64,000 bases of DNA from Dehalococcoidia bacterium. GTDB taxonomy: Bacteria > Chloroflexota > Dehalococcoidia > Lucifugimonadales > UBA2985. The notes beneath the pieces are model-generated. The model saw nothing but the letters and a program-made list of their open reading frames with translations, ran no database searches and was not told the origin of the DNA. The stretch covers positions 41,352-105,351 of the forward strand of contig DAOUJW010000020.1 in assembly GCA_034422115.1 (NCBI GenBank). Reading direction: 5' to 3'. Shown here one piece after another: positions 4,221 to 44,278 of this stretch (within the stretch, counting starts at the first letter, position 1; the number at the start of each line of letters is the position of its first letter). The translations under genes were made by a program, and so were the position numbers.

Positions 4221-5636
4221 TTACGCCTCTTTGACGGCGTTGACCAGGTTGACCAGAGCGCGCCGTGCGTCGTCGAAGAGCATGCGGGTCTTGGGGTTGT
4301 AGAAGAGCGGGTTGTCTATGCCCGCGAACCCGGGACTGAGGCTCCGCTTGATGAATATCACGTTCCTGGCCCTGTCCACGTTGAGAATGGGCATTCCGTA
4401 GATGGGGCTGTCCGGCACGTCCCGGGCCACCGGATTCGTCACGTCGTTGGCGCCCACCACCACGGCCACATCCGTCCTCTCGAACTCGTCGTTGATGTCC
4501 TCCATAGGGAAGAGCTGGTCGTATGGCACATCGGCCTCGGCCAGGAGCACGTTCATGTGCCCCGGCATCCTTCCGGCTACGGGGTGTATGGCGTGCTTGG
4601 TCTCGACGCCCCGGGCCTGGAGCAGGTCTGCCAGCTCTCGCACGTGGTGCTGAGCCTGGGCCGCGGCCAGCCCGTAGCCGGGCACGAAGATGACGGACTT
4701 GGCGTAGGCCAGTACGATAGCTGCGTCCTCCGCGGAGGTGGACTGGGCCTGCCGCCCGTCGGCAGCATCGCCGCCGACCGCCGCCACCTCTGCGCCGAAG
4801 GCACCGAAGATCACGTTCCATATCGAGCGGTTCATGGCCTGGCACATTATCGTTGTCAGAATGAGGCCGGAGGCCCCCACCAGTGAGCCGCTGACTATCA
4901 GGATGAGGTTGTCCAGCACAAAGCCCGCGGCCGCGGCCGCAAGGCCGGAGTAGGAGTTGAGCAGGGCGATGACAACCGGCATGTCCGCCCCGCCGATGGG
5001 CATTACCAGGAGCACGCCCAGCAGCAGGGAGACGACTATCATCGCTATGAAGATGGGCGAGACCTCCGCGAGGGTTGCGGACCCTCCGCCGAGCATCACC
5101 ACCATGTAGCCCCCCATGCCCAGGATGGACAGGAACAGGATGGGGTTGAGCGCCTTGATGATGATGGAGTTCACCGCACGGGAAGTGACCAGGTCCTGGA
5201 GCTTGCCAAAGGCTATGAGGCTGCCGGAGAAGGTGAGCGCGCCTATGAAGCTGCCCAGCATTATAGTTACGGAGACCTCGGTGTCGACGGCGCCGGATTC
5301 GGCGTCCAGCAGGGTGAAGAGCTCGCCGGAGGCCACAAGCGCGGACGCGCCGCCGCCCAGGCCGTTGAATATCGCCACCATCTGGGGCATGGCCGTCATC
5401 TGGATGGTCCTGGCCATGACCGCGCCAATGGCCGCGCCCACGACCATCCCGCCCGCAATGTGGACGTAGTTCAACACGTCCTGGTCGAGGAGGGTTACGA
5501 CCACGGCAATCAGCATCCCGGTCGCGCCCAGCATGTTGCCGGACCTGGCCGTGGCCGGGGAGCTAAGCCGCTTCAGCCCAAAAATGAACAGGACTGCGGC
5601 CAGCAGGTATGCAACGTAGATGGCGTTCTGGTCCAT
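4221..5636 (-). CDS. pntB: NAD(P) transhydrogenase subunit beta
   Basis: GGADMPVVIALLNSYSG, HPVAGRMPGHMNVLLAEA, GANDVTNP motifs. Confidence 0.97.
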   Translation of the reverse strand: MDQNAIYVAYLLAAVLFIFGLKRLSSPATARSGNMLGATGMLIAVVVTLLDQDVLNYVHIAGGMVVGAAIGAVMARTIQMTAMPQMVAIFNGLGGGASALVASGELFTLLDAESGAVDTEVSVTIMLGSFIGALTFSGSLIAFGKLQDLVTSRAVNSIIIKALNPILFLSILGMGGYMVVMLGGGSATLAEVSPIFIAMIVVSLLLGVLLVMPIGGADMPVVIALLNSYSGLAAAAAGFVLDNLILIVSGSLVGASGLILTTIMCQAMNRSIWNVIFGAFGAEVAAVGGDAADGRQAQSTSAEDAAIVLAYAKSVIFVPGYGLAAAQAQHHVRELADLLQARGVETKHAIHPVAGRMPGHMNVLLAEADVPYDQLFPMEDINDEFERTDVAVVVGANDVTNPVARDVPDSPIYGMPILNVDRARNVIFIKRSLSPGFAGIDNPLFYNPKTRMLFDDARRALVNLVNAVKEA

Positions 5637-5938
5637 CAGCTAGGCTCGTCCCTTCGGCGTCTGAACATCTGGAGCATCCGGTCTGTGACCATGAAGCCGC
5701 CCACGACGTTAATGGTTGCCAGGGCGACCGCGACTATTCCTAGAATCGTGCTAACCAGCGGCGCGCCGTCGTTGCCTGCAACCAGCAGAGCGCCAATGAG
5801 CACAATGCCGGATATGGCGTTGGAGCCGGACATCAGGGGCGTGTGGAGAATGGGCGGGACCTTGGTGATGACCTCGAATCCCACCAGCACGGCCAGCACG
5901 AACACGTATAGGGAGAACAGCAGTGTAATTTCGGTCAT
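5636..5938 (-). CDS. pntAB: NAD(P) transhydrogenase subunit alpha part 2
   Basis: KVPPILHTPLMSGSNAISG, INVVGGFMVTDRMLQMF. Confidence 0.96.
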   Translation of the reverse strand: MTEITLLFSLYVFVLAVLVGFEVITKVPPILHTPLMSGSNAISGIVLIGALLVAGNDGAPLVSTILGIVAVALATINVVGGFMVTDRMLQMFRRRRDEPS

Positions 5939-5968
5939 GCCTGTTACCTCACTCCCGTTTCTTCGTTG

Positions 5969-6109
5969 GAAACCTCTGAAGTACTGTCGTTCCTGCGAAA
6001 GCAGGAACCTCTACCATTTGCCTTTAGATTCCTGCTTCCGCAGGAATGACGGGAGGGAGAGTAGGAATGGCGGGTTCGCGGAAAGGCGTATAGGTCATTT
6101 AGAGGTTTC
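5969..6109. mobile_element. MITE-like element enclosing a REP doublet
   Basis: Ends GAAACCTCTGAA / TTTAGAGGTTTC (11/12 inverted); internal inverted REP pair 5986-6051; flanks GTTG/ATTG (imperfect). Confidence 0.6.
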
Positions 6110-6133
6110 ATTGATTTCAACTTTCGCGGTCGG

Positions 6134-7255
6134 TCAGGACGACCTGGCTGGGCCGTAGACTATCTCTCCGTTGTTGGTTATGCAGCAGCCCTGGACTATC
6201 GAGTCTTCAAAGTCCAGGTTCAACTCCCCGTCCTTCACCAGGTGCGTGAGCAGGTTGTAGATGTTCCGGGAGTACATCTGGCTGGCGTGGACGGGCATGG
6301 TGCTTGGCAGATTCAGGGGCCCGTGGATAGTGACGCCGTGCTTGACGACCTCCGCGCCGGGCTCCGTCAGCTCACAGTTGCCGCCGGTCTCGGCAGCCAG
6401 GTCCATAATGATCGCGCCCGCCTTCATGTCCTTCACCATGTCCTCGGTTATCAGCAGGGGAGCAGGCCTCCCTGGAATCAGGGCCGTGGTGATGATGAAG
6501 TCTGCGTCCCTGGCGTGGGTGTGGATAAGCTCACGCTCCTTGCGCTGGGTCTCCTCAGCAAGCTCTGTGGCGTAGCCCCCGGCGTCCTCCACGTGGGCCT
6601 CCTCCGCCATGCCGACAAAGGTCGCCCCCAGGCTCTCCACCTGCTCCTTGACCACCGGCCGCACGTCGAAGGCCTGCATAACCGCGCCAAGACGACGCGC
6701 AGTCGCAATCGCCTGTAACCCGGCGACACCGGCGCCCAGCACCAGGCCCTTGGCCGGCGCGTATGTCCCGGCGGCGGTAATCATCATCGGAAAGTATTTG
6801 CCCATCGAGTTGGCGGCGATGAGCACGGCCTTGTAGCCGGCGAGGGAACTCATTGAGGAGAGGGCATCCATGCTCTGCGCCCTGGCGATGCGGGGAACGG
6901 TGTCCATGCTGAAGCCGGTTATCCTTCTCTCCGCCAGCTCATTCACGAGATCCGTGTTGGTGAGCGGCTGGAGAAAGGCGATGATGGCCGATCCCTCCCG
7001 CATCATGCCCACTTCATCCAGGGAAGGGCCTTGCACCTTCAGTACCATGTCCGCGCCGCCCAGGAGCGAGGCCGCGTCCGGCGCAATGGTGGCCCCTGCG
7101 CCCGTGTAAGTCTCGTCTGTGTAGAACGATTCCTCTCCCGCCCCGGCCTGCACCGCCACTTCCATCCCCGCACCCACCAGCCTGCCGACCATGTCGGGGG
7201 TCAAAGCCACACGCCGCTCGCCGGCTGTGGTCTCTTTGGGAATGCCTACTTTCAT
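6134..7255 (-). CDS. pntAA: NAD(P) transhydrogenase subunit alpha part 1
   Basis: MKVGIPKET..GERRVALTP, AQSMDALSSMS, GAGVAGLQAIATARRLGA, DLAAETGGNCE. Confidence 0.97.
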   Translation of the reverse strand: MKVGIPKETTAGERRVALTPDMVGRLVGAGMEVAVQAGAGEESFYTDETYTGAGATIAPDAASLLGGADMVLKVQGPSLDEVGMMREGSAIIAFLQPLTNTDLVNELAERRITGFSMDTVPRIARAQSMDALSSMSSLAGYKAVLIAANSMGKYFPMMITAAGTYAPAKGLVLGAGVAGLQAIATARRLGAVMQAFDVRPVVKEQVESLGATFVGMAEEAHVEDAGGYATELAEETQRKERELIHTHARDADFIITTALIPGRPAPLLITEDMVKDMKAGAIIMDLAAETGGNCELTEPGAEVVKHGVTIHGPLNLPSTMPVHASQMYSRNIYNLLTHLVKDGELNLDFEDSIVQGCCITNNGEIVYGPARSS

Positions 7256-7520: not shown

Positions 7521-8135
7521 TCAGTACGCCAGCTTCAGGTTTCCAACAAACAATAGCATAATGAGTATTGATATTGGAGCAAGAACAAAGGGCATCAAGA
7601 ATGCCAAACCGTGAACTATTCTCCTCATTGGTTCATCATTCCGCCCCCAGGATCTTTTGAGAATTCGGGCTCCAGATAGAAAGCAAGCCATCCACATCAT
7701 CAGGGAAACAACCAATGGCGCTAAGTACTCAAACAGCACGCGATTCCAATCGCCACGATTCATAAAGAATTCACGGCTCTCCGGCTCGCCGATGCCGTAA
7801 ATTGTGATAAGTATCCAGGTTGAAATTGGGGCGAAGAACCAGGCAAACATTACTGTTATGTAGGCGATAGTCGTATAACCAGGTGAGTAGGAACCTGAAC
7901 GCAACCTGTTCTAAAGACATATGCTCGGCATGAAGAATGCAAGAGAGGCCGCGAATCCGAGCAACCCATAACCTATGGGCTCTAGTCCCCTTTTGTTGGC
8001 GGCTACGCCACAGGCAATGGCTGAGAATGGCGACCACAGGACACCTATTACGAAAATAAACCACGCGATGATGGAAAACGGGACTGCCAAGTTCCATATC
8101 TCAAGGTAAAGCGGCAAATCCGAAGGAGCATCCAT
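7521..8135 (-). pseudogene. Membrane protein gene split by one in-frame TAG (7911-7913)
   Basis: ORFs 7911-8135 and 7521-7904 are in the same frame (...FFMPSICL*NRLRSG...); both are hydrophobic and AT-richer. Confidence 0.6.
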
Positions 8136-8190: not shown

Positions 8191-9681
8191 CTACAGCCCC
8201 GTCAACTCCAGCGTGGTCACCTGCTCCGTCTCCAGGTCCAGGACGCGAATGGCGTGGTTGTTGGTGTCGGCTATGTACAGCCTGCCGCCGGCCGCAGAAA
8301 CACCGGAAGGCTCGTCAAAGCAGGCGTCTCCTGCCCAGCCGTCCCGGAACCCGACCTCGCCCTTGCCTGCAATGGCCTCGGCGCTCCGCTCCTCCGGCAC
8401 AACCCGCTTTATCTTGTGGTTGTAGGTGTCGGCCACGTACAGGAAGCCGTCAACCAGCGCTACGCCAATGGGGTGCTGCAGGCGCACGTCGTCTCCTACG
8501 CCGTCCACGTCTCCAAACTCGAACAGGTCACGGCCTACTATCGTGTCGAGGCGTGAATTCTCTCCCAACTGCATCGTCCTGACGGCGCTGGACTCGCTGT
8601 CGGCAAAATACAGCCTCTCGCCGTCGGTGGCGATGCCGCTGGGCTGAGCCAGCCAGACGTACTCAACCGGGCCGTCCAGCAGCCCCTCGCGGCCCGTCCC
8701 GAGGATTGGGTAGAGCTGCCCGCCAGCCAGGTCCATCTCCCAAAGCTGGTGGAAGCCGGCCATTGCGATGAACAGCAGCCCGTTGTTATAAACCAGGTCC
8801 CAGGGCGAGTTCAGCTCTATGCTCTTTCCCTCTCCGCCCATGTGTACCTCCCGCGCCTGCTGCCCGCTGCCGGCAATGGTCTCCACTGAGCCGCCCGCCA
8901 GGTCTATCCTGCGGATGGCGTGGTTGTCCGTGTCCGCAACGTAGAGCGTCTCGCCTGCGAGGGCCATCCCTTGGGGGTGGTGAAACTGCGCCGACGACAA
9001 ATCGCCGTCCTGGAGGCCTGGCTCACCGCTGCCTATGACTGCCAGCGCCTCGCCGTCAAGGGAGGCGACGATTATGCGGTTGTGGTTGGTGTCCGCGATG
9101 AACAGTCGGCCGGAAGCCTCGTCCGCCAGCGCCTTGCCGGGGAATGAAAGGGTGGTCCGGCCGCCGTCTTCTACGCCGTCCGAAAGATGAAGGGGAGCGC
9201 GGTCCAGCATACCGTTGTCGTCGAACTCCTTGATCATCTCCTGGAGCACGCCGTCCAGCCTCTCAAAGGATGCCTCTCCGGTGATGCCGCCGATGATTTT
9301 GCCCTGGGGGTCGATGAAGATTATGGTGGGCCACGCCCTCACGCGGTACTGCTGCCAGACTTGGGACTCGCTGTCGTTGACCACGGGGTGCCTGATTCCG
9401 TAGCGCCTGATGGCCTGGCGGATGCCGTCGGTGTTCCTCTCAGACGTGAACTTGCCGCTGTGCACGCCGATGACGGCCAGCTCTTCCGGGTACTTCTGCT
9501 CCAGCTTCCGCAACTGCGGAAGTACGTGCATGCAGCCAATTCAGCAGTATGTCCAGAAATCCAGCAGCACCACCTTGCCCAGAAGATCGCCCAGGCTGAC
9601 CGGCTCCCGGCTGTTGAGCCACTCCAACCCGGACGGGAAGTCAGGCGCATCGGCCGTTCCGACGTATGATCTGGGCTGCAT
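8191..9681 (-). CDS. Thioredoxin-like + NHL-repeat protein (NHLRC2-like), probable selenoprotein with TGA at 9541-9543
   Basis: Open frame from ATG 9681 (AAGGAG RBS): [59 protein letters not shown], continuing into the 8191-9531 ORF with NHL repeats (FHHPQG, LNSPWD, LAQPSG, LQHPIG, FDEPSG). Confidence 0.88.
9505..9522 (-). promoter_or_regulatory. Candidate bacterial SECIS hairpin
   Basis: mRNA CUUCCGC-AGUU-GCGGAAG; the loop starts 26 nt after the UGA and has G at loop position 2. Confidence 0.6.
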
Positions 9682-9766
9682 GACGCTTGCTCCTTACGCG
9701 GGTGTGCCGCGTGACCGTTTGGTGTCACTATAGCACAAAGGAATGCTTCCGCTCATAGCGGCCGTT

Positions 9767-9794
9767 GTAAGGGCGGTTCGCAAACCGCCCCTAC
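9767..9794. repeat. GTAG-type REP palindrome
   Basis: GTAAGGGCGGTTCGCAAACCGCCCCTAC; relatives at 23971-23998 and 34449-34473. Confidence 0.7.
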
Positions 9795-9810: not shown

Positions 9811-10686
9811 CTAGTGAAATGTGCCGGACTCCATGTCCAGGAGGGAGGCCCGGCCGGCGGCTTTGCCCTTGGCGGTTGCAAGCCGCGCCCGGAGCCCCGT
9901 GTACGCAAGCACCAGCATGAACAGCGTCGCCGAGAACAGCACCACCGTCGCTCCGGATGACACGTCCACGTAGTAGCTCAGGTATATGCCGCCCGTCCCG
10001 CAGAAAGCGCCCACCCCCGCCGACAGCATCATCATTGTGCCAAAGCTGTTGGTCAACAGCCTGGCGACTATGGGCGGTATGACGATGGCCGCCGCTATCA
10101 TCGTCACTCCCAGCACCTGGATTGACACCACTATCGTGGCCGCCAGCACCAGCGCGAGCATGGAGTCCGCCCAGCCTGTTGGCACTCCGTAGTACCTGGC
10201 AACCTCCGGGTCAAAGGTGGTGAACAGGAAGAACTTGTAGCCCACCAGGACGATGAGAAGGGAGGCGGCCACGACTGCCACGATAGCGATGAGGTCGCCG
10301 TCGGTGACGCCCAGGATGTTGCCGAAGAGGGCGGCGTCGAAGCTGCGGGTGAAGCTCTTGTAACGGCTTATCAGGGCAATGCCCAGGGCGAAGCTGGCGG
10401 TGGTCACGATGCCGATGGCGGCGTCGGCGCCAATCTTGCGCTTGCTGGTGGTCAGGTTGATGAGCAGCGCCGACACCAGGCCCCAGACGCTGGCCCCGGC
10501 GTAGAAGTTGATGGACATGATGTAGCTGACCACGGCGCCGCCGAAGATGGCGTGGGCCAGCCCGTGGCCTATGTAGGACATCCGCCTGAGGACTACGTAC
10601 ACCCCGATGAAGCCGCACAGCCCGCCCACCAGAGCGGCGGAGATAAGCCCTCTCACAAAGAACTCGTACTGAAGTGGCTCAAGCAC
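9811..10686 (-). CDS. znuB: Zn/Mn ABC transporter permease
   Basis: GVYVVLRRMSYIGHGLAHAIFGG, LFGNIL, PPIVARLLT, SSGATVVL. Confidence 0.93.
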   Translation of the reverse strand: MLEPLQYEFFVRGLISAALVGGLCGFIGVYVVLRRMSYIGHGLAHAIFGGAVVSYIMSINFYAGASVWGLVSALLINLTTSKRKIGADAAIGIVTTASFALGIALISRYKSFTRSFDAALFGNILGVTDGDLIAIVAVVAASLLIVLVGYKFFLFTTFDPEVARYYGVPTGWADSMLALVLAATIVVSIQVLGVTMIAAAIVIPPIVARLLTNSFGTMMMLSAGVGAFCGTGGIYLSYYVDVSSGATVVLFSATLFMLVLAYTGLRARLATAKGKAAGRASLLDMESGTFH

Positions 10687-10761: not shown

Positions 10762-11126
10762 ACCTCGTCATTCCTGCGAAAGCAGGAATCTAGCTCATAC
10801 TATCTGGTCATACAGGTCTGACCATACGGGATTGCCGTTCTCTATTAGCTCAATCTTCCACGCCCGTTTCCACTTCTTGATGGCCTTTTCCCTGCTGATG
10901 GCCGCCTCTATAGTTACGTGAGTTTCATACCATACTAGCTTGTGTACTCGATAACGCTTGGTAAAGCCACCGATAAAGTCATTCTTGTGCTCCCAGACCC
11001 GTCGGATCAAGTCCGAGGTGACGCCGATGTACAGGGCGCCATTTGGCCTGCTTGCAAGAATATAAACGCAAGGGGCAGCCATGGTTGGAGGCCTTTAGAT
11101 TCCTGCGAAAGCAGGAATGACGAGGT
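10762..11126. mobile_element. REP-bounded GIY-YIG unit inside the znu operon
   Basis: 31-bp inverted REPs (10762-10792 and 11096-11126) enclosing the nuclease gene. Confidence 0.65.
10795..11082 (-). CDS. Stand-alone GIY-YIG nuclease (UPF0213/SLX1-like)
   Basis: CVYILAS...LYIGVTSDLIRRVWEHK...AISREKAIKKWKRAWKIELIE. Confidence 0.93.
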   Translation of the reverse strand: MAAPCVYILASRPNGALYIGVTSDLIRRVWEHKNDFIGGFTKRYRVHKLVWYETHVTIEAAISREKAIKKWKRAWKIELIENGNPVWSDLYDQIV

Positions 11127-11185: not shown

Positions 11186-12031
11186 CTAATTCGACGCCTC
11201 TCTGCCGGCGGGGGTCCGGTGGCTGTCTCTGCCGAAGAAGTGCGGGGTCTCAGCGACCAGGGTTATCCCCTGGTACTGCGTGACGGGCATATCCGCGCCG
11301 TAGGTGTGGCTGAGTATCTCGCTGGTGAAGACCTCACTTGGAGGGCCGTCGGCCACAAGGCGGCCGTTCAGGCACACGACGCGGGGGAGGTGAGCGGCCA
11401 CAGAGTTTATCTCGTGGGTGCTCATTATCACTGTTATGTCCTCGTGGTTGAGCTCGTCCAGGAGGTGCATCACGTCGTCGCGGGTCTTGATGTCCACGCC
11501 GGTGGTCGGCTCATCCAGGAGCAGCAGGCGGGGGTTGCTGACCAGGGCGCGGGCCAGGAAGGTGCGCTGCTGCTCGCCGCCGGACAGCTCGCGGATGTGC
11601 CTGCGGGCCAGCTTGGATATGCCCAGGCGGTCCATGATGCGCGCCGCCCGCTCCCTGTCCCCACGGCGGTGCCAGGGGAAGATTGCGCCGTCCATAGTGC
11701 ACCCCATCATCACCACCTCCTGCACCGTCACCGGAAAGTTCCAGTCGATGGTCTCAAGCTGGGGCACGTACCCGGCCCGGGGCCTCCTGTGGGCCACCGA
11801 CTGCCCCTCAACAACCACGTCACCGTGATAGATGTCCACGGCGCCCAGGATGCTGCGAAGAAGGGTGCTCTTGCCGGAGCCGCTTGGCCCAAGCAGGCCG
11901 ACGAAGTCGCCGGGCATGATGCTCAGGCTGACCTCCCTGAGCACGTGCCTGCCCTCGTAGCCGGAGGTTACGTCTCTCAGCTCCACGATGGGAGGCTCAT
12001 GGCCGTATTCGTGCGGGACGGGATGAAGCAT
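11186..12031 (-). CDS. znuC: Zn/Mn ABC transporter ATP-binding protein
   Basis: GPSGSGKST, GYVPQ, LSGGEQQR, LLLLDEP. Confidence 0.94.
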   Translation of the reverse strand: MLHPVPHEYGHEPPIVELRDVTSGYEGRHVLREVSLSIMPGDFVGLLGPSGSGKSTLLRSILGAVDIYHGDVVVEGQSVAHRRPRAGYVPQLETIDWNFPVTVQEVVMMGCTMDGAIFPWHRRGDRERAARIMDRLGISKLARRHIRELSGGEQQRTFLARALVSNPRLLLLDEPTTGVDIKTRDDVMHLLDELNHEDITVIMSTHEINSVAAHLPRVVCLNGRLVADGPPSEVFTSEILSHTYGADMPVTQYQGITLVAETPHFFGRDSHRTPAGREASN

Positions 12032-13926: not shown

Positions 13927-14026
13927 GGAGTTTGCGCCCCGTTCCCTGGATTCCGGCGAAAGCCGGAATGACGGTGAGGGTGTCCTTGAACTAGAAGGTC
14001 GTGTTTGCTACTTGTTCAGAGGATTC
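13887..14026. mobile_element. MITE-like element (relative of 21209-21322, inverted)
   Basis: 13997-14026 is the reverse complement of 21209-21238 at 28/30; left end GAGTGGTCTGAACA; internal REP pair 13907-13972. Confidence 0.65.
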
Positions 14027-14159
14027 TTGGCGTTTCCTTCTGATGTTGCCCCAGGTAAGGCTCGCAAGCTGCCATCTCTGCATAGGCGTTGTGCTACAAT
14101 ATCCAGGATATGCCTGCGATTCTCAATATCCGCGAGTACGCCTTGCTGGAGATCGTCCC

Positions 14160-14717
14160 GTGAGCCTACGACTAATAGAAGACACGGCAGCAAGGAGACT
14201 CGGTCTGCTGGCGCTCCTCTCTGTAGCGGGTCTGGCAGCTCTAGTCGTGGGCTGCGCATCCCAGCCAGATACGCTGTCGGCTGAGGAGATGGAGGAGGAG
14301 GCCCAGGGCATAGACAAGAGCCTCATGTGTCCCGTATGCCCCAGCGAGACCATCGACCAGTCCCAGACGCAGCTTGCCAAGCAGATGCGGGACATTGTGC
14401 GCGAGAAGCTGGCCGCGGGCGAAAGCCGTGAAGAGATACTCCGCTTCTTCGAGGACAGATACGGCACGTCGGTGCTGGCTGAGCCGCCCAGAAGCGGGTT
14501 CAACCTGCTGGTGTGGGTAGCGCCTCCCGTTGCGCTGGCGGCCGGGGGCCTTGTGCTCGCGGTCGCGCTGCGGGCCATGCGCAGGTCCCACGACTCCGAC
14601 TCCGCCGGGGACGTGCGTGAGGATGAGCCGGGACTGGAGCCGTACCTCTCCGCAGTGGACAGGGAGATACAGGGCATAACCCCAATTACCGATGACACCT
14701 CGGAAGGGAGGGGCTAG
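14160..14717 (+). CDS. ccmH: Cytochrome c biogenesis protein CcmH
   Basis: LMCPVC..ETIDQS, RYG..VLAEPP; GTG start with GGAG upstream. Confidence 0.9.
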   Translation: MSLRLIEDTAARRLGLLALLSVAGLAALVVGCASQPDTLSAEEMEEEAQGIDKSLMCPVCPSETIDQSQTQLAKQMRDIVREKLAAGESREEILRFFEDRYGTSVLAEPPRSGFNLLVWVAPPVALAAGGLVLAVALRAMRRSHDSDSAGDVREDEPGLEPYLSAVDREIQGITPITDDTSEGRG

Positions 14718-14719
14718 CC

Positions 14720-16717
14720 TTGGCCGACCTGGGATACGTAACGCTGCTTCTGGCCCTGGTGCTGGCTTGCTACTCGGTGGTGGCGTCTTTTGTGGGGGCG
14801 GGCAGGGGTGCGCCGCACCTTGTCAGGAGCGCGCTGAACGCTACGTACCTGTCTCCCGTCGCGCTGGGCCTGTCCACGGCCGGGCTTGTGGGCGCGTTTG
14901 TGTCCAGGGATTTCAGCGTGGAGTACGTGTGGGCCAACAGCAGCCGGGCCATGGACATCCAGTACATCTGGGTCGCCTTCTACGCCGGCAATGAAGGCTC
15001 GATTCTGTTCATCGCATTTGCGCTGGCGGTGCTCGCGGCCGCGGCGGTGTACTTCAGCCCTAAGGCCTTGCAGCCCAGCCTGCCATACGTCAACGCGGTC
15101 ATCATGCTGGTGCTTGTCTTCTTCGTGGGCGTGATGGTGTTTCTGGCCAACCCCTTCGCACGCCTCGATATTGTGCCTACGGACGGCCGCGGCATAAACC
15201 CGCTGCTGACCCATCCCGGCATGTTTGTGCATCCTCCAATGCTTATGACGGGGCTTATCTCCTTCACCATCCCCTTCGCCATTGCGATGGGCGCGATTCT
15301 GTCCGGCAAGACCGGCGATGAGTGGGTGGACGCGGGCCGCACTTGGGGCATACTGTCCTGGGCGCTGCTGGGCATAGGGCTGCTGCTGGGCGCGTGGTGG
15401 GCCTACACCATCTTGGGCTGGGGTGGGTACTGGGCGTGGGACCCCGTGGAGAACGCCGGATTCATGCCCTGGCTTGTGATCACGGCCTTCATCCACTCCA
15501 TCATGGTGCAGAAGCGACGCGGCATGTTCCGTATGTGGAACCTCGCCCTCCTCATAATCGCCTTTGGCTTTGCCCAGTTCGGGATGTTCATCAACCGGGG
15601 CGGCCCCGTGCCGTCGGTGCACTCCTTCGGACAGTCGACCCTGGGCTGGATATTTCTCCTGTTCATGGGCGTTACGATGGTCATCTCCTTTGCCGTCTTC
15701 TTCTGGAGGTACAACAGCCTCAAGAGCGCCCAGACCCTTGAGTCTGCCCTGTCCAGAGAGGGCGCTTTCCTGGTGAACAACCTCCTGTTCCTGGGCGTGG
15801 CCTCCGTCACGCTGTGGGGGGTTGTCTACCCGCTCATCTCCGACCTGTTCCAGGGGGAAGTCATCACGGTGGGGCAGCCCTTCTACAACCAGGTGAACGG
15901 GCCGATGTTTCTGGCCCTCATCTTCCTGATGGGCGTGGCCCCCTTCCTGCCGTGGCGACGGGCCTCCTGGCGAACTGTGCGACAGGCGTTGATCGCGCCC
16001 GTCGCCGTCGCACTTGTGGTCGTGGCTGTCCTGCTGGCGATAGGTGTGCGTAACCCCTTCGCCGTGACCGCCTTCGGCCTGTGCGCCTTCGTCACCGCGG
16101 GCATCGTGCGGGAGTGGGCCAGGGGCACGATTTCGAGACGCGGCAGGGGAGAGAGCTACCCCGTCGCCTTTGTCAGGCTAATCGCCGGAAATCGTCCCCG
16201 GTACGGCGGGTATGTGGTACACCTGGCGGTGGTGCTGCTGGCCCTGGGCGTGGCGGGGTCATCCTTCTACGGAATCCAGCGAGACGTGGCGCTGGCCCCC
16301 GGTGAGGCCACCGAGATTGGCGGGTACTTCGTGAAGTACATCGGCTCCTCGGCGGTCGAGAGGGCGGACCGAGTGGAGGCGAGGACGGAGGTGCATGTGT
16401 TCAGGGGCGACGACTTCCTGGGCGTCTACCGGCCCAAGCGTGACTTCTATCCCAGCTTCAACCTGGCGTCGACCCAGGCGGCGATTCGCTCCACGCCCAT
16501 CGAGGACCTGTACATCATTCCGGGCGAGATCCTGGACGACGGGCGCGTGGTGTTCAGGATATTCGTCAATCCCCTGGTGATGTGGATGTGGGTGGCCGGC
16601 CCGATGCTGGTGGTGGGCGTGATGGTGGCCCTCTGGCCCCAGAGGGAACCGGCGACGGTGTACGCACGCTCGCCCTTGGACGACGCCGCGGTGCGGTCGG
16701 GCGCAGTCACCGGCTGA
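14720..16717 (+). CDS. ccmF: Cytochrome c heme lyase CcmF
   Basis: NPLLTHPGMFVHPP, WGGYWAWDPVEN, SVHSF. Confidence 0.96.
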   Translation: MADLGYVTLLLALVLACYSVVASFVGAGRGAPHLVRSALNATYLSPVALGLSTAGLVGAFVSRDFSVEYVWANSSRAMDIQYIWVAFYAGNEGSILFIAFALAVLAAAAVYFSPKALQPSLPYVNAVIMLVLVFFVGVMVFLANPFARLDIVPTDGRGINPLLTHPGMFVHPPMLMTGLISFTIPFAIAMGAILSGKTGDEWVDAGRTWGILSWALLGIGLLLGAWWAYTILGWGGYWAWDPVENAGFMPWLVITAFIHSIMVQKRRGMFRMWNLALLIIAFGFAQFGMFINRGGPVPSVHSFGQSTLGWIFLLFMGVTMVISFAVFFWRYNSLKSAQTLESALSREGAFLVNNLLFLGVASVTLWGVVYPLISDLFQGEVITVGQPFYNQVNGPMFLALIFLMGVAPFLPWRRASWRTVRQALIAPVAVALVVVAVLLAIGVRNPFAVTAFGLCAFVTAGIVREWARGTISRRGRGESYPVAFVRLIAGNRPRYGGYVVHLAVVLLALGVAGSSFYGIQRDVALAPGEATEIGGYFVKYIGSSAVERADRVEARTEVHVFRGDDFLGVYRPKRDFYPSFNLASTQAAIRSTPIEDLYIIPGEILDDGRVVFRIFVNPLVMWMWVAGPMLVVGVMVALWPQREPATVYARSPLDDAAVRSGAVTG

Positions 16718-18626: not shown

Positions 18627-19193
18627 TTGAGCGGACGCACCGTCATACTCCTGTCTGCGGCGGCCATCTTCGCAGCCTTCCTCGCGCTGCTGAGCCTTGC
18701 GCTGCTCCGCACCGGCGGAGCGCCCGCGTCCGGCGGCGTCAACCAGGACTTCGGAGAGGTGAGCGTCGAAGAGAAGCCTGCGCCGGGCTTCACCCTGGAG
18801 CTTTTCGAAGGCGGTTCCGTCAGCCTCGCCGACCTGCAGGGCCAGGTGGTTCTCCTGGACTTCTGGGCCTCCTGGTGTCCGCCGTGCATTGAGGAGGCGC
18901 CCACCCTCAACCGGGTCTACGAGGAGTACCGCGAGAGGGGCGTTGAGTTCCTGGGCGTCTGCATCTGGGACACGACCAGCACCTGCGAGCAGTTTCTGGA
19001 GGAGTACGAAGTTGCATATCCCACGGGCCGGGACTCAGAGGGCGCGATCCTGGTGGAGTACGGCGTCAAGGGCATCCCGGAGAAGTTCTTCATCGACGCG
19101 CAGGGCAGGGTGGCGCGCAAGTTCGCCGGCCCCGTTCGGGACGAGGACGCGCTTCGTGACATCCTGGACGATATGCTGTCTGCCTCAGGCTGA
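18627..19193 (+). CDS. TlpA/CcmG-family thiol-disulfide oxidoreductase
   Basis: N-terminal TM; DFWASWCPPC; YGVKGIPEKFFID. Confidence 0.92.
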   Translation: MSGRTVILLSAAAIFAAFLALLSLALLRTGGAPASGGVNQDFGEVSVEEKPAPGFTLELFEGGSVSLADLQGQVVLLDFWASWCPPCIEEAPTLNRVYEEYRERGVEFLGVCIWDTTSTCEQFLEEYEVAYPTGRDSEGAILVEYGVKGIPEKFFIDAQGRVARKFAGPVRDEDALRDILDDMLSASG

Positions 19194-20261
19194 GGGCGCG
19201 GGCTCTTTGCAGAAGGGCAGGCCGCCCAGGGCTGAGGAGTGCGTTCTCAGAATCTGCCTCAAATCGGTCGGGACGCACCCACTCAGCCGGTTTCCGAACA
19301 GGTACAGATAGCCCAGGTTGGGCAGGTCGCCAAGCTCCTTCGGCACCTCACCGCTCAACACGTTGCCATTGAGGGACAGGTGCTCCAGGTTGGAGAGCTG
19401 GCCAAGCTCCTCCGGTATCTCTCCGCTCAGGTGATTTCCATCGAGATGCAGCTCGACGAGGTTGGAGAGGCTGCCAAGCTCCTCCGGTATCTCGCCACTC
19501 AAGCGGTTCCCGAAAAGGTACAGGACTTCCAGCTCTGAAAGGCTGCCAAGCTCCCTCGGCGTCTCGCCGGTCAACCTGTTCTGGCTGAGAAAGAGCTGCT
19601 CCAGGTTGGAAAGCCGGCCCAACTCCGTCGGAATCTCTCCGAACAGCTCATTGTCGTACAGATAAAGGATTCTGAGTTCGGCCAGGTCACCGAGCTCCCG
19701 CGGCAACTCTCCGCTCAGCCGGTTCCCGTACAGATACAGGTACTCAAGATTGTCCAGGTCTCCCATCTCGCTTGGGATCGACCCGACCAACCGGTTTCCG
19801 TTCAGATAAAGCTCCTGGAGTCTGGATAGCTGGCCCAGTTCGGGAGGCAGCTCGCCGCTCAACCAGTTGTTTCGGAGCATCAGGGAAGTTACCCGGTCGT
19901 TGCCGTCACAGGTAACGCCAAACCACTCGCCGATGGGCTTGTCGCTCAGCCAGTTGTCGCTGTGCGTCCAGTTGGGGCCGTCGGTGGCATGGTACAGAGC
20001 GACCAGGGCTTCTCTGTCGGTCTCGGCAGACCGCGGCTCCGGGGTGGGTTCAGGGGTAGCCGTAGGCGTGGGCACAGGCGTTGCCGTAGGCGTGGGCGTT
20101 GGCGCGGGGGTAGCCGTCGGCCTTGGGGTAGGGTGGGGCGATGGCGTGGGTTGCAGAGTTGCCGTTGGCGTGGGCTCCTCCGAGCCGCAGGCGGGAAGGG
20201 TCATCGCTACGGCGATACCCAGCAGGACCAGCCATCCTATGGCTCTTTGCTTCTTATTCAT
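19185..20261 (-). CDS. Plant-type leucine-rich-repeat lipoprotein
   Basis: Lipobox LPAC, PT linker, LRR N-cap (DREALVALY...NWLSD...WFGVTC), about 9 repeats of 24 aa LxxLxLxxNxLxGxIPxELGxL. Confidence 0.92.
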   Translation of the reverse strand: MNKKQRAIGWLVLLGIAVAMTLPACGSEEPTPTATLQPTPSPHPTPRPTATPAPTPTPTATPVPTPTATPEPTPEPRSAETDREALVALYHATDGPNWTHSDNWLSDKPIGEWFGVTCDGNDRVTSLMLRNNWLSGELPPELGQLSRLQELYLNGNRLVGSIPSEMGDLDNLEYLYLYGNRLSGELPRELGDLAELRILYLYDNELFGEIPTELGRLSNLEQLFLSQNRLTGETPRELGSLSELEVLYLFGNRLSGEIPEELGSLSNLVELHLDGNHLSGEIPEELGQLSNLEHLSLNGNVLSGEVPKELGDLPNLGYLYLFGNRLSGCVPTDLRQILRTHSSALGGLPFCKEPAPSA

Positions 20262-25793: not shown

Positions 25794-26226
25794 CGCCAAC
25801 GTCCCTATCTACGCCTCTGGCAGGGAAAACCCAAACAAGCAGCCGTGCGCTCAGGTCCTGATGCTGGCCGCGGAACACCCGATGTCATTTGTCACAGACG
25901 CGGAGGTGCTTCAGGAGCTTCTACATCGCTATCTCGCCTCGGAGCGGTGGGCCTTGGGCAGAGAAGTTCTCAACAGTTTCGCCGAGGTAATGCGTGAGCG
26001 GATCGAACCCGTATATGCGGAGGACATAGACCTGGCGGCGAAGCTGGCGGACAGTCATCGGGGGATTAGCGCCCGCGATCTCGTCCACGCGGCGGTGATG
26101 CTCCGGTTGGGAGTATACCAAATCATCTCCTCCGACGCTGACTTCGACCGCCTGCCGGGCATAACCCGCCTGAACCCTGCCCGCGTTGGAGAGTGGGGCA
26201 ATTCGGTACTGGTTGGCGAGGGCTGA
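25771..26226 (+). CDS. vapC: PIN-domain toxin VapC
   Basis: FIDANVPIY, VLQE, RDLVHAA, IISSDADFD. Confidence 0.9.
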   Translation: MNPAAFIDANVPIYASGRENPNKQPCAQVLMLAAEHPMSFVTDAEVLQELLHRYLASERWALGREVLNSFAEVMRERIEPVYAEDIDLAAKLADSHRGISARDLVHAAVMLRLGVYQIISSDADFDRLPGITRLNPARVGEWGNSVLVGEG

Positions 26227-26327
26227 TTTCAGCCACCAACCCCGGGCGCCCTTTGAAGGAGCGACGCCTTATACACGTCCCAAGCCATTGGGTTGCAGCA
26301 TACAGCCCTCCGCTATATCCTATAGTC

Positions 26328-27560
26328 ATGCCTGAGCTTTTTACCGTGGTAACCCCCGACGAGGCCCTGGAGAAGCTGCGCGCCCACGTCAGCCACAGGA
26401 CCGAGAGCGAGGACGTCAAGGCCAACCTGGCCTACGGCCGCGTGACGGCTGCGGACATCCACGTGCCCTCTGCGCTGCCCGCATTCCCACGCTCCACCAT
26501 GGACGGGTACGCCGTCATTGCCGCCGACACCTACGGCGCAACCGAGGGCATCCCGGCCTACCTGAACGTGGTCGGGGAGATTCCAATGGGCAGACCCGCG
26601 GGCCTGTCGCTGAGCCGAGGCGACGTGGCAAAGGTGCACACCGGCGGGATGCTGGCCGACGGCGCAGACGCAGTGGTCATGGTCGAGAACACCCAGCCGG
26701 TCGATGACAACACCATCGAGGTTGTGCGGCCCGTGGCCCCCGGCGAGAACGTGCTCCAGGTCGGAGACGACGTGAAGACGGGCCAGCTGCTGCTTCCGTC
26801 GGGCCACCTGCTCAGGCCCCAGGACATCGGCGGGCTGATGGGCCTGGGCGTCAACCGCATCACCGTCTCGCGGCGGCCCCGGGTGTCCATCCTCTCCACG
26901 GGCGACGAGCTTGTCTCCCCGGAGCAGGAGGTGACGCCCGGCAAGATACGGGACATCAACACCTACAGCCTCTCCTCAATTGCCCTGCAGACCGGCGCAG
27001 TGCCCATGACTATGGACATTGTGGGGGACAGCTTTGAGGACCTGAAGGCGGCGGCAGAGAAGGCCATAGAGAACTCCGACATGCTGGTCATCTCCGCCGG
27101 AAGCTCCGTCAGCACCCGGGACATGACCGCGGACGTGATAGCCTCTCTTGGCGAGCCGGGGTTGCTGGTGCACGGCGTCTCCATCAAGCCCGGCAAACCC
27201 ACCATCCTGGCGTCCGTTGAGGGCAAGCCCGCCATCGGTCTGCCGGGCAACCCGGTGTCGGCGCTGGTCATCTTCGAGCTTTTCGCCGTTCCCGCAATGT
27301 ACTGGCTTGCGGGGTGCGACGCGCCCCCGGCCCGCTTCACAGTGACCGCGCCGCTTACCCACAACGTCGCTTCGATACCGGGCCGCGAGGACTACGTGCC
27401 GGTGAAGCTGGAGGCCACCGACGACGGAGTCGCGGCCGTGCCCGTGTTCGGGGAGTCCAACCTCATCTCCACCATGATCAACGCCGACGGCATGGCCAAG
27501 GTGCCCCTGGACAAGGCCGGCCTGTACAAGGGCGAGATGGTCTCCGTGAGGCTCTTCTAG
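26328..27560 (+). CDS. moeA: Molybdopterin molybdotransferase MoeA
   Basis: RSTMDGYAV, STGDEL, RDINTY, IKPGKP, LPGNPVS; leaderless TTGCAG-17-TATCCT-6nt-ATG. Confidence 0.95.
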   Translation: MPELFTVVTPDEALEKLRAHVSHRTESEDVKANLAYGRVTAADIHVPSALPAFPRSTMDGYAVIAADTYGATEGIPAYLNVVGEIPMGRPAGLSLSRGDVAKVHTGGMLADGADAVVMVENTQPVDDNTIEVVRPVAPGENVLQVGDDVKTGQLLLPSGHLLRPQDIGGLMGLGVNRITVSRRPRVSILSTGDELVSPEQEVTPGKIRDINTYSLSSIALQTGAVPMTMDIVGDSFEDLKAAAEKAIENSDMLVISAGSSVSTRDMTADVIASLGEPGLLVHGVSIKPGKPTILASVEGKPAIGLPGNPVSALVIFELFAVPAMYWLAGCDAPPARFTVTAPLTHNVASIPGREDYVPVKLEATDDGVAAVPVFGESNLISTMINADGMAKVPLDKAGLYKGEMVSVRLF

Positions 27561-27567
27561 GGGCGCA

Positions 27568-29496
27568 ATGCAGCGGAAGTTCTACCTGGAGGACATCCCC
27601 CTGGATGAGGCCATCGCCAGGTTCTACGGCGCGCTGGAGGAGAACGGCGGCCTGAAACCCCTGTCCGGAGAGACCGTGCCCCTTGACCGGGCACTTGGCC
27701 GCGTGACCTCCCAGCCGGTGTGGGCCAGGATGTCGTCGCCCCACTACCACTCGGCGGCCATGGACGGCGTGGCGGTGCGCGCCCAGGACACCCACGGCGC
27801 CAGCAAGACCTCTCCGCTGACCCTCAAGCTGGGTGAGCAGGCCGTGTGGATTGACACCGGCGACCCCGTGCCGCCCGGCTACAACGCCGTCATAATGGCC
27901 GAGGACCTGCAGCCGGTGGGCGACGACGCTGTGCAGATTATGGCCGCGGTCGCCGACTGGCAGCACGTGCGTCTACTGGGCGAGGACATGGTTGCCACGG
28001 AGCTTGTGCTTCCCGAAAACCACCGCATCGGGCCGTCCGACCTGGGGGCGATGGCCGCCGCCGGCCTGACGGAGGTTGAGGTGCGCCGGAAGCCGGTGGT
28101 GTGCATCATTCCAACGGGCACGGAGCTGATTGCGCCCGGAGAGCCGATGGAGGTGGGCAAGATAATCGAGTTCAACTCCCTCATGATGGCCGCGCAGGTG
28201 GAGGAGTGGGGCGGCAGCCCCGTGCGCCATCCCATAGTCCCGGACGACTTTACCCAAATCAAAGAAGCGGTGCAACGGGCGCTGGAGACCTCTGACGTGG
28301 TCATCATGAACGCTGGCTCCTCGGCAGGCTCCGAGGACTACACCGCCCAGGTGGTGTCGGAGGTGGGGGAGCTTCTGGTGCACGGCATAGCCGTAAGACC
28401 CGGGCATCCGGTGGTGTTGGGCGCGGCCGGGGCAACGCCCATGATTGGCGCGCCGGGCTACCCGGTGTCCTGTGTGCTCACAATGGACATAATCGCCAAG
28501 CCACTAATCAGCCGCCTTCTCGGAACACTCTCTCCCGCGAGACCCAGGCTGGAGGCCACCATGAGCCGCAAGGTGCTATCGCCTATGGGCGAGGACGAGT
28601 TCATGCGGGTGAAGGTGGGCAGGGTGGGGGAGCGGGTCATCGCCACGCCGCTCACTAGGGGCGCGGGCGTCATCATGTCGCTGGTAAGGGCCGACGGCCT
28701 TGTGCGCATCCCGCGCTTCTCCGAGGGTCTGGAGGCCGGTTCCGCGGTGGAGGTGGAGCTGCTCCGGCCAAGGGAAGAGGTGGAGAACACCATCGTCGCA
28801 ATTGGCAGCCACGACATGACGCTCGACCTGTTGGGCAGCCTGCTGCATCGGGAGAACGCTGCCCTGAGCCTGGCGTCGTCCAACGTGGGCAGCCTCGGCG
28901 GCTTGCAGGCGTTGCGACGGGAGGAGGCGCACCTGGCGGGCAGCCACCTGCTGGACGAGGAGACGGGTGAGTACAACATCCCGTACATCCGCCGTGTGCT
29001 TGGAGAGCGGGAGGTGGTGGTTGTCAACCTGGCCTACCGAGACCAAGGGCTGATTGTGCCCAGGGACAACCCGGACGGCGTCACGACCCTGTCTGACCTG
29101 ACCAGGGAGGGCGTGTCCTTTGTGAACCGCCAGAGGGGCTCCGGCACGCGGTTGCTGCTGGACTACGAGCTTAAGCAGGCCGGCATCTCCCCGGAAAGCA
29201 TCAAGGGCTACGACCGCGACGAGTATACCCACACGGGCGTGGCCGCGGCCGTGGCCAGCGGCACGGCGTCGGTCGGGCTGGGCATACTCGCCGCCGCCCG
29301 GGCGCTTGACCTGGACTTTGTACCCCTGCTCAAGGAGCGGTACGACCTGGTGATACCCAGGCGCTACTACGAGAGCGAGCTGCTGGCGCCGTTGCTGGAA
29401 ATCATTCGCGGGTCTGAGTTCCAGGAGCAGGTCACGGCCCTGGGCGGGTACGACACCTCACAGACGGGGCAGGTAATAGCGGAGCTTCCGGGGTAG
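27568..29496 (+). CDS. MoeA fused to a PBP-superfamily (molybdate/tungstate-binding) domain
   Basis: MoeA N-part (SAAMDG, TGTEL, RPGHP) plus C-terminal GSHD, VGSLGGL, NRQRGSGTR, THTGVAAAV. Confidence 0.93.
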   Translation: MQRKFYLEDIPLDEAIARFYGALEENGGLKPLSGETVPLDRALGRVTSQPVWARMSSPHYHSAAMDGVAVRAQDTHGASKTSPLTLKLGEQAVWIDTGDPVPPGYNAVIMAEDLQPVGDDAVQIMAAVADWQHVRLLGEDMVATELVLPENHRIGPSDLGAMAAAGLTEVEVRRKPVVCIIPTGTELIAPGEPMEVGKIIEFNSLMMAAQVEEWGGSPVRHPIVPDDFTQIKEAVQRALETSDVVIMNAGSSAGSEDYTAQVVSEVGELLVHGIAVRPGHPVVLGAAGATPMIGAPGYPVSCVLTMDIIAKPLISRLLGTLSPARPRLEATMSRKVLSPMGEDEFMRVKVGRVGERVIATPLTRGAGVIMSLVRADGLVRIPRFSEGLEAGSAVEVELLRPREEVENTIVAIGSHDMTLDLLGSLLHRENAALSLASSNVGSLGGLQALRREEAHLAGSHLLDEETGEYNIPYIRRVLGEREVVVVNLAYRDQGLIVPRDNPDGVTTLSDLTREGVSFVNRQRGSGTRLLLDYELKQAGISPESIKGYDRDEYTHTGVAAAVASGTASVGLGILAAARALDLDFVPLLKERYDLVIPRRYYESELLAPLLEIIRGSEFQEQVTALGGYDTSQTGQVIAELPG

Positions 29497-38522: not shown

Positions 38523-39020
38523 TCAGAAAGCCGCGCGCTCCGTGGCTCCGCCTCCGCCCTCGGCGGCGCTCTTCCTGTGCCGCTTGATGCCCTCCTCCAG
38601 GGCCGCCCAGGACAGCATTGCGCACTTGATGCGTATGGGGAACTTCTTGACGCCCGCCAGGGACTCCACCTCGCCCATCGCTTCAAGCTCCTCGTCGGAG
38701 GGGTCTTTGCCCTGCATCATATCGCGGAAGAGCAGGTATATGCCCTCCGCCTCGTCCAGGCTCTTGCCCTTGATGGCCTCCGTGAGCATGGAGGCGGACG
38801 CCTGGCTGATTGAGCACCCAACTCCCCGGAAGCTGACGCCGTTCACCAGGCCATCGGCGAGCTTCATCTTGAGGTAGACCTCATCTCCGCAGAAGGGGTT
38901 GATGCCCTCCGTCTCGATGTCAACCTCTTCAAGCTCCTGCTGGTTCCTGGGGCTGCGGTAGTGGTCAAGGATGATCTCGCGGTAGAGATCGTCCATGTCT
39001 GAGAAGTCAAAGTTCTGCAT
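38523..39020 (-). CDS. sufU: SUF system Fe-S assembly protein SufU
   Basis: IILDHYRSPRN, NPFCGD, GCSISQAS, RIKCAML. Confidence 0.95.
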   Translation of the reverse strand: MQNFDFSDMDDLYREIILDHYRSPRNQQELEEVDIETEGINPFCGDEVYLKMKLADGLVNGVSFRGVGCSISQASASMLTEAIKGKSLDEAEGIYLLFRDMMQGKDPSDEELEAMGEVESLAGVKKFPIRIKCAMLSWAALEEGIKRHRKSAAEGGGGATERAAF

Positions 39021-39023
39021 GGG

Positions 39024-40268: not shown

Positions 40269-40573
40269 GGTGTCCTCACCGTTTAAGCGCCTTCTCCGTC
40301 ATTCCTGCGGAAGCAGGAATCTAGAGATCCTTGTGGAGGCCGTACGGGATCGATGGAAGCGCGAGAGCTTCGGCCCCGCTCATCCTGAGCTTGTCGAAGG
40401 AAATGAGCGGGGGTGAATTTGCTCATGGTCTTCCCGCTCATATGGTTCGACAGGCTCACCATGAGCGGGAAAGCGGCGGCCAATCCTGTGTCCTCTAGTT
40501 TCATGGTTATGACAAGAGTATAGAGCTACTTGGCTGGTTATGTAAGAGCCTCCTTGCAGAATGCGACGTGTGG

Positions 40574-41911: not shown

Positions 41912-41915
41912 GGGT

Positions 41916-42683: not shown

Positions 42684-42701
42684 CGATCATCCCTTTCTCG
42701 A

Positions 42702-44159
<1,458 letters not shown>

Positions 44160-44240
44160 AGGTACTCTCTCCTTGCTCTCCGGGTATCTGTCCCAGAGAC
44201 GACAAATATGGCAGCCGCTCGCCGCCGACACCTATTGTTA

Positions 44241-44278
44241 ATTATAGCACAATATTGTTGACCAACTAGGTCAACAAT
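44241..44278 (-). promoter_or_regulatory. suf promoter (extended -10) and 25-bp palindromic operator
   Basis: TGCTATAAT on the minus strand (44241-44249); ATTGTTGACC-AACTA-GGTCAACAAT perfect 10-5-10 inverted repeat (44254-44278). Confidence 0.7.

Follow-up and report, generated by a model that had tools for sequence, protein, structure and literature searches.

NHLRC2 is essential in mammals and is mutated in FINCA disease; its thioredoxin (Trx)-like domain is inactive in standard assays. In the structure of this protein, helix alpha1 carries a CCINC motif at its N-terminus; the motif lies in the cleft that a six-bladed propeller forms with the Trx-like domain (PMC6107167). In the plant protein SOQ1 the C431-C434 pair of the Trx-like domain is redox-active and passes electrons to a C-terminal domain, which has methionine sulfoxide reductase activity on the lipocalin LCNP (preprint 10.1101/2024.11.01.621559). 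Here we describe a gene of this family from a Dehalococcoidia bacterium, in which an in-frame TGA codon occupies the position of the first Cys of the CxxC motif. The gene is located on the minus strand (9681-8191) of a stretch of 64,000 nucleotides of contig DAOUJW010000020.1 (positions 41,352 to 105,351), which is called the window in the following. From comparison with its relatives we consider it highly probable that this is a genuine selenoprotein gene with one product of 496 residues.

Thioredoxin-fold selenoproteins with a UxxC motif, in which selenocysteine (Sec) replaces the first Cys of CxxC, are well known as a kind. The selenoprotein catalogues from 2022 and 2026 include a 'Prx-like thiol:disulfide oxidoreductase' (PF00578) and a 'Redoxin family protein' (PF08534). 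The window gene resembles these proteins in that Sec would stand for the first Cys of CxxC in a fold of the TlpA/AhpC-TSA/Redoxin type; in both cases a small hairpin resembling a bacterial Sec insertion sequence (bSECIS) is present in the coding region past the UGA, and Cys homologs are widespread. It differs from them in that the catalogue entries have a single domain identifier each, while the window protein has 496 aa, two domains and a CUxxC motif. It is set apart from the catalogue representatives MGB1650493.1, HEU0032618.1 and WP_010940744.1 by their descriptions only. Another thioredoxin-fold selenoprotein of ResA/TlpA-like type, the ResA-like WAxxUGC protein (NF041054), is known to the NCBI annotation pipeline. 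The window protein was rejected as a member of NF041054, with which it scores 28.2 bits where 300 are required; it also departs from this family in motif (UGC versus CUxxC) and in architecture. None of the NCBIfam models reaches its cut-off with the window protein.

What appears to be new is the Sec form of the NHLRC2/SOQ1 family. The literature that we searched contains no description of such a form and no mention of NHL, NHLRC2 or SOQ1 in connection with selenoproteins, nor of SAR202 in the same connection. The genes in the database BSepDB were found by tblastn from known families with a Sec/TGA pair (PMC13326102), so Sec Trx-NHL genes may already be present there under a generic thioredoxin-fold name.

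A Trx-like/NHL gene with a single in-frame TGA codon

The reading frame extends on the minus strand from the ATG at 9681-9679 to the TAG at 8193-8191 and comprises 496 sense codons. The sole internal stop is the TGA at 9543-9541, which is codon 47 in the context D-F-W-T-Y-C-TGA-I-G-C-M-H. A Shine-Dalgarno-like AAGGAG (9690-9695, minus strand, read from the sequence) precedes the start codon with a spacer of 8 nt, and a purine-rich AGGAG-like box is found at the equivalent site of most relatives in the DNA alignment. The start codon itself (Met1, 9679-9681) is invariant in eight of eight members of the window clade. A scan upstream of the gene found no sigma-70 promoter, and a terminator scan found no terminator-like site on its strand.

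The mechanical list of open reading frames (ORFs) splits this gene into an ORF of 46 aa (9541-9681) and one of 446 aa, which starts at Met51 (ATG, 9529-9531). The initial annotation had pointed out that the ORF track begins at the Met at 9531, and it had placed the true start at the ATG at 9681 behind AAGGAG, with exactly one TGA in the extended frame; the coordinates check out and the single TGA is confirmed. Unless the TGA is read through, the Trx-like domain is cut through its active site.

The identity of the protein was analyzed with Cys placed at codon 47. The Pfam matches are Thioredoxin_8 (residues 35-129), AhpC-TSA (12-129), Redoxin (23-144) and NHL repeats (E = 2.7e-31). The best match in the PDB is the lumenal region of Arabidopsis SOQ1 (7DJJ), which aligns over residues 11-495 with E = 1.8e-128; human NHLRC2 (6GC1) matches the same residues with E = 1.2e-114. 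The Trx-like domain is of the TlpA/DipZ type and covers residues ~11-152 (9226-9651), over which DipZ (2HYX, residues 11-152) can be aligned. It contains a motif of the CC(I/V)NC type in the variant C-U-I-G-C (C46-U47-I48-G49-C50, 9532-9546), the counterpart of CCINC in NHLRC2 and SOQ1. In the alignment with SOQ1, DFWTYC[47]IGC lies over DFWTYCCINC, so the TGA takes the place of the second Cys in CCINC, with which the CxxC begins. The initial annotation had named DFWTYCCINC for Trx-NHL proteins and placed the TGA at this same Cys, and the Cys homologs, SOQ1 and NHLRC2 all agree with this assignment.

The NHL-repeat propeller (residues ~176-495, 8197-9156) directly follows the Trx-like domain. 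Residues 176-495 align end to end with 7DJM and 6G7W, and judging from this alignment the propeller would have six blades. A C-terminal domain with a second Cys pair, as in NHLRC2 and SOQ1, is absent; the chain stops with residue 496, immediately behind the propeller. This short form is characteristic of the Sec clade, in which the proteins have 491-510 aa compared to ~630-690 aa for most of the Cys forms. We classify the window protein from its alignments as a core-only member of the NHLRC2/SOQ1 family, because the C-terminal domain has been called non-conserved and the mammalian architecture was found in only a few bacterial sequences (PMC6107167). Its predicted architecture is the core of human NHLRC2 and plant SOQ1 without their C-terminal domain. 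The likeness to both proteins includes the Trx-like and NHL domains, which are aligned along their full length, and the DFWTYC-C/U-I-N/G-C motif at the N-terminus of helix alpha1. In contrast to the window protein, NHLRC2 and SOQ1 have Cys instead of Sec and both carry the C-terminal domain; SOQ1 additionally has a HAD domain and a membrane anchor, and its C-terminal domain is the one that receives the electrons and bears the reductase activity. No signal peptide or membrane anchor was evident from reading the N-terminal sequence of the window protein.

Distribution of the TGA codon and selection on both sides of it

The nine closest proteins in the database (73-100% identity) are all 440-447 aa long and cover 89-90% of the query. 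The matches with ≤61% identity are all full length and contain CC[IV]NC, which holds for all 111 full-length hits. For seven of the nine truncated clusters DNA was retrieved, which gave nine loci; in each of them a called ORF of 46 aa is followed by the shortened gene 7-25 nt past its stop. The TGA is invariant in a DNA alignment of eight sequences from the window clade (8/8). The same is true for a stretch of 33 nt, ATGCACGTACTTCCGCAGTTGCGGAAGCTGGAG, which starts 10 nt past the TGA; the neighbouring third positions vary freely.

Truncation by automated annotation had been predicted for this gene, and it is general. It affects all nine close matches and also all of the 120 best matches of the form from Dehalococcoidia bacterium UBA1141. 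The latter have 430-454 aa, none contains U, and they are named 'alkyl hydroperoxide reductase', 'YncE', 'YvrE' or 'hypothetical'.

The part of the gene in front of the TGA is under selection. Pairwise Nei-Gojobori ratios of nonsynonymous to synonymous changes (dN/dS) from 28 comparisons in the window clade range from 0.07 to 0.25 in codons 2-46 and from 0.14 to 0.24 in codons 60-496. The region 5' of the TGA is hence as constrained as the rest of the protein. Also the tblastn matches to Cys forms start at query residues 1-12. A global reassignment of TGA does not apply, since 14 of the 37 window genes with domain support end in TGA. A search of the window for further genes interrupted by one TGA yielded nothing but normal gene ends and antisense frames.

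These data bear on the view that the locus is a split gene, with a 46-aa peptide and a separate 446-aa NHL protein from Met51, and with the downstream hairpin that is described below serving re-initiation or mRNA stability. The ATG 7 nt past the TGA in the window clade fits this view, and gene finders call both ORFs. However, many TGA forms (for example loci L011, L014 and L027) have Ala, Leu or Val in place of Met51, which is therefore not a conserved start; the products called in these cases begin 6-12 residues later and have no CxxC. Furthermore, Met51 is not preceded by a Shine-Dalgarno-like sequence, the cut falls within the active-site turn of the thioredoxin fold so that neither half is a complete domain, and the Cys-form homologs are single polypeptides. 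A split gene is thus very improbable.

A scan of one genome per GTDB species provided 80 further loci and hence 89 loci from genomes and assemblies in all. The TGA is present at this column in 30 of the 89 loci (31 with the window), and it aligns with Cys in the remaining 59. The TGA carriers are metagenome-assembled genomes (MAGs) of Dehalococcoidia and other Chloroflexota, a SAR202 single-cell genome, the cultured Fervidibacter sacchari PD1 and a Rokubacteria MAG. Cys is found in Acidobacteriota, Latescibacterota, Armatimonadota, Brocadiales, Binatia and others. Metagenome contigs were scanned with the pattern DFWT[YF]C-TGA-[IV][NG]C, in which the TGA is specified and the downstream sequence is unconstrained; this resulted in at least 120 loci. 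The pooled set from genomes and metagenomes contains at least 133 distinct TGA sequences. The alternation between TGA and Cys among homologs, which had been proposed as a check on the locus, is therefore real and wide.

In a neighbor-joining tree all TGA forms group in one clade of short (~495 aa) proteins. The only Cys form that is nested within this Sec clade is from a Thermobaculum MAG (L055), and it keeps the peptide ...LPHLR. This topology suggests a single origin of Sec with occasional reversion to Cys. The Sec subfamily is short (~495 aa) and centred on Chloroflexota. The window likewise belongs to Chloroflexota; the best matches of its CTP synthase that carry a name are all Chloroflexi, Dehalococcoidia or SAR202.

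A lone in-frame stop in an otherwise intact gene looks like a fresh nonsense mutation or a base error, in which a TGC or TGT was miscalled, and the gene callers agree with such a reading. Against a pseudogene or an assembly or sequencing error is the fact that more than 130 distinct sequences share the TGA; these were assembled independently from short or long reads and belong to several phyla. There is purifying selection on both sides of the TGA, and the downstream hairpin occurs together with TGA and not with TGY. Two of the signs that were named beforehand as speaking against Sec, a TGA unique to this assembly and relaxed selection downstream of it, are not seen. We regard an error or pseudogene as exceedingly improbable.

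A covarying hairpin downstream of the TGA codon

The window gene contains a hairpin at 9522-9505 of the minus strand, with the arms CUUCCGC (9522-9516) and GCGGAAG (9511-9505) and the loop AGUU (9515-9512). The stem is separated from the UGA by 18 nt, which puts the first loop nucleotide at position 26 after the UGA. The same nucleotides double as coding sequence for L-P-Q-L-R-K (residues 54-59). The hairpin alone (20 nt) has a folding energy of -11.5 kcal/mol (z = -3.9), and none of 200 shuffled sequences folds as well. Its 16-nt core occurs once in the window, while 0.08 occurrences are expected by chance.

The published bSECIS consensus requires a loop of 3-9 nt, an upper stem of 4-16 bp, a distance of 16-37 nt between UGA and loop and a minimum free energy of ≤-7.5 kcal/mol; a G is found within the first two positions of the loop, usually followed by G or U (PMC13188914, summarising Zhang and Gladyshev). 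With a loop of 4 nt (AGUU), a stem of 7 bp, 25 nt between UGA and loop and -11.5 kcal/mol, the window hairpin lies within all of these limits, and its loop has a G at position 2 followed by U. The initial annotation had already noted that a 7-bp hairpin with an AGUU loop at this distance fits bacterial SECIS geometry, and the comparison with the published values bears this out. The hairpin is similar to the E. coli fdhF-type and consensus bSECIS in that it is a stem-loop within the coding sequence, closely follows the UGA and has a small apical loop that contains G and then U. It differs from the fdhF element in that it has no sequence similarity to it and in that neither a conserved lower stem nor a bulged U was found; another difference is that the 12-nt core of the window hairpin, CCGCAGUUGCGG, is unusually invariant across phyla. 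RNAalifold proposed an extra helix of 4 bp over the UGA. This helix was rejected; its support is poor with pairs broken in 5-6 sequences, and no lower stem is therefore claimed.

The conservation of this element was analyzed on the level of codons and of base pairs. When 28 Sec genes are aligned by codon, there are 182 columns in which the amino acid is conserved and its codons are degenerate. Zero codon variation is found in only five of these columns, namely the TGA and the four consecutive codons CCG-CAG-TTG-CGG (residues 55-58); these four make up the loop and the uppermost part of the stem. All stem cells are paired (203/203) in a set of 29 distinct sequences, and two of the pairs have compensatory double changes (UA 16, CG 11 and UG 2 in one; UA 28 and GC 1 in the other). 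The covariation score was not matched in any of 500 shuffles, and all slid registers were much worse. In one of the covarying pairs, the first base of a Leu/Phe codon is joined over a distance of 17 nt to the third base in a Lys codon; selection on the protein level is hence no explanation for this pairing. The same pattern is found in a larger set of 97 distinct sequences of the AGUU type, with UA78/CG7/GC5/UG3 at pair 5, UA36/CG28/UG22 at pair 7 and GC92/CG2 at pair 2; in this set pairing ends abruptly past pair 7.

The hairpin is linked to the TGA and not to the family as such. Among the matches listed, 107 of the 133 distinct TGA forms have an ungapped hairpin within the bSECIS limits, compared to 1 of 59 Cys forms (Fisher p = 2e-27), and the AGUU loop is located exactly 25 nt from the UGA in 102 of the 133 TGA forms. 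On the protein level the peptide downstream of the motif reads ...[FL]PQLR in every TGA form from the genome and assembly loci as opposed to IPDLK in the Cys forms; PQLR is the hairpin read as protein. Two short Cys forms, the protein P0014 and the L055:3124 region of the Thermobaculum MAG, keep this hairpin-imposed peptide (CCINCMHVFPQLRK and CCINCMHILPHLR, respectively). From their sequences they look like Sec-to-Cys reversions with a relic of the SECIS.

About 24 distinct TGA sequences (L095, L099, L112, L122, L128, L152 and others) are without the PQLR/AGUU hairpin. In these, stable hairpins of other kinds lie about as far from the UGA, such as CCAGAGC-UGGAC-GCUCUGG, which encodes LPELEALE; sister subclades would thus use other SECIS types. 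This diversity suggests that the family has several types of SECIS or has gone from Cys to Sec several times.

Sec machinery, proposed function and neighbouring genes

Several observations weigh against the reading of the locus as a selenoprotein gene. The wider region of 67 nt past the UGA is of ordinary stability (z = -1.2), and it is the 18-nt hairpin alone that stands out. The 64-kb window contains no selA, selB, selC or selD: ARAGORN finds 0 tRNAs in it and hence no selC, tblastn with SelA, SelB and SelD from E. coli gives no match in the window, domain scans of ~55 of its ORFs reveal no Sec machinery, and Rfam at gathering thresholds has no match there. The insertion of Sec proposed in the initial annotation is supported; we infer the incorporation at codon 47 from the UGA/Cys conservation, the selection on the gene and the covarying SECIS-type hairpin. 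Finally, an enzymatic role of the protein would follow from analogy to SOQ1, in which the electron relay ends in the C-terminal domain that the window protein does not have; with the Sec clade devoid of this domain, the analogy is only partial.

The ORFs at 26193-27560 and 27568-29496 are selA/selB-like in size, but they are MoeA-type molybdopterin genes and were rejected as Sec genes. A tblastn search with the E. coli proteins SelA, SelB and SelD in the window and all 210 loci detected selD in one locus alone, L177, while the 'SelB' matches in L177 and L193 turned out to be EF-Tu. L177 is a marine contig of 51 kb with an intact TGA-form Trx-NHL gene (TGA at 11296) 4.6 kb from selD. The latter (5622-6668, minus strand) scores 394 bits with TIGR00476 at a cut-off of 125. 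This selD is itself a selenoprotein gene with an in-frame TGA at the classic SHCAG-U-AAK site. Another locus, L031, is the TGA form of Dehalococcoidia bacterium UBA1141, which is listed in BSepDB with 49 genes among the ten most selenoprotein-rich bacteria; a genome needs ≥2 genes of the Sec pathway to be included there (PMC13326102).

The sequence evidence for readthrough and an RNA signal does not prove the identity of the inserted residue. The hairpin could in principle drive recoding of UGA to a residue other than Sec, either to Cys by a tRNA-Sec-like tRNA or to Trp or Cys by near-cognate readthrough. Cys tRNAs that resemble tRNA-Sec have been proposed in some bacteria. PMC5424206 contains no treatment of UGA-to-Cys recoding. 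Several facts speak against such non-Sec recoding: the hairpin agrees with the SelB-type bSECIS model in all respects, the L177 contig encodes selenophosphate synthetase, which is needed only for the use of selenium, UBA1141 holds dozens of selenoprotein genes, and the position is the classic site of Sec/Cys exchange, the first Cys of CxxC. Recoding to another amino acid is therefore improbable, though less so than a split gene or a sequence error.

With Sec as the preferred residue, the following mechanism can be proposed. Translation would begin at the ATG at 9681, and the UGA at codon 47 would not be read as a stop. The hairpin 18 nt 3' of the UGA would act as a bacterial SECIS and recruit SelB-GTP-Sec-tRNA(Sec), so that Sec is inserted and translation goes on. 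The product would be a cytoplasmic protein, in which a TlpA/DipZ-type Trx-like domain with a C-U-x-x-C centre is placed against a six-bladed NHL propeller. Sec47 in the N-terminal, nucleophilic position of CxxC would be expected to attack a disulfide or another oxidised sulfur of a protein substrate in the cleft between the two domains. U47 would then form a selenenylsulfide, which would be resolved by Cys50. Sec/Cys pairs generally mark catalytic redox residues. In combination with the example of the C431-C434 pair in SOQ1, this rule makes a role as thiol/selenol oxidoreductase probable by analogy.

We tentatively propose, with a little less confidence than an even chance, that the gene represents the first recognised Sec form of NHLRC2/SOQ1 and belongs to a large, ancient and monophyletic Chloroflexota clade (with Fervidibacter and Rokubacteria), which is uncatalogued as such. 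This proposal includes that the Trx-propeller core is a self-sufficient redox enzyme, as the missing C-terminal domain of the Sec clade would indicate, and that the residue at the position of human C90 and SOQ1 C431 is the attacking nucleophile; the latter is suggested because Sec replaces only catalytic redox Cys. If this is true, the protein would be a natural hyper-reactive variant for trapping substrates of the essential human protein NHLRC2, and a Sec form or a Cys-to-Ser trapping mutant could serve as a reagent for finding them. The natural alternation of Sec and Cys at this first CxxC position of CCINC would be independent evolutionary evidence for redox catalysis by that residue. The finding also matters for databases; the entries of the clade that were compared here are all shortened and without the active site, so hundreds of clusters at 90% identity in SAR202/Dehalococcoidia, which are abundant bacteria of ocean and soil, are mis-described. 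A widespread two-domain family would be added to the selenoproteome of Chloroflexota. For the study of SECIS elements the family offers an unusually clean data set with one invariant 12-nt core and alternative hairpin types in sister clades.

The neighbourhood gives no hint on function. The gene order znuABC-like, Trx-NHL, pntAA-AB-B is kept only in the window's own clade, and the Dehalococcoidia loci from GTDB have no shared synteny. Gene neighbourhood was likewise uninformative for this family in a previous study (PMC6107167). In the gap of 129 nt between the ABC-3 permease gene and the Trx-NHL gene we noticed by eye a perfect GC-rich inverted repeat of 8 bp, GGGCGGTT-TGCG-AACCGCCC (9771-9790, minus strand). 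No T-run follows, and the terminator scan missed it.

Two small ORFs of 74 and 127 aa (7521-8135, minus strand) are located between the Trx-NHL gene and pntAA; they appear hydrophobic by eye and have no Pfam match. The site is variable: L003 and L007 run straight to pntAA, and L001 has a PaREP1-like gene plus a DDE transposase. On the other side of the Trx-NHL gene an ORF of 95 aa with a GIY-YIG nuclease domain (10795-11082, minus strand; Pfam E = 1.3e-14) is found in an operon for a metal ABC transporter of the Fur/ZnuA type, between the genes for the permease (9811-10686) and the ATPase (11186-12031).

The MoeA-type molybdopterin molybdotransferase genes mentioned above form a tandem (26193-29496, plus strand), and the second one (642 aa) matches the long PRK14498 form, 'molybdopterin biosynthesis protein'. 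A complete suf cluster for Fe-S assembly is present at 38523-44231 (minus strand) with SufB-like (42702-44231), SufD-like (40574-41911), SufS (39024-40268) and NifU-like (38523-39020) genes. An ORF of 255 aa (41916-42683) is in the SufC position, a placement by position only. An antisense ORF of 844 aa over this cluster (41727-44261) has no family match and is probably spurious. Another gene (19185-20261, minus strand) encodes a leucine-rich-repeat protein of 358 aa (LRR_1, E = 1e-34), which is unusual for a Chloroflexota genome; it adjoins a cytochrome c maturation cluster with ccmH (14001-14717), ccmF (14720-16717) and a ResA-like Redoxin gene (18627-19193).

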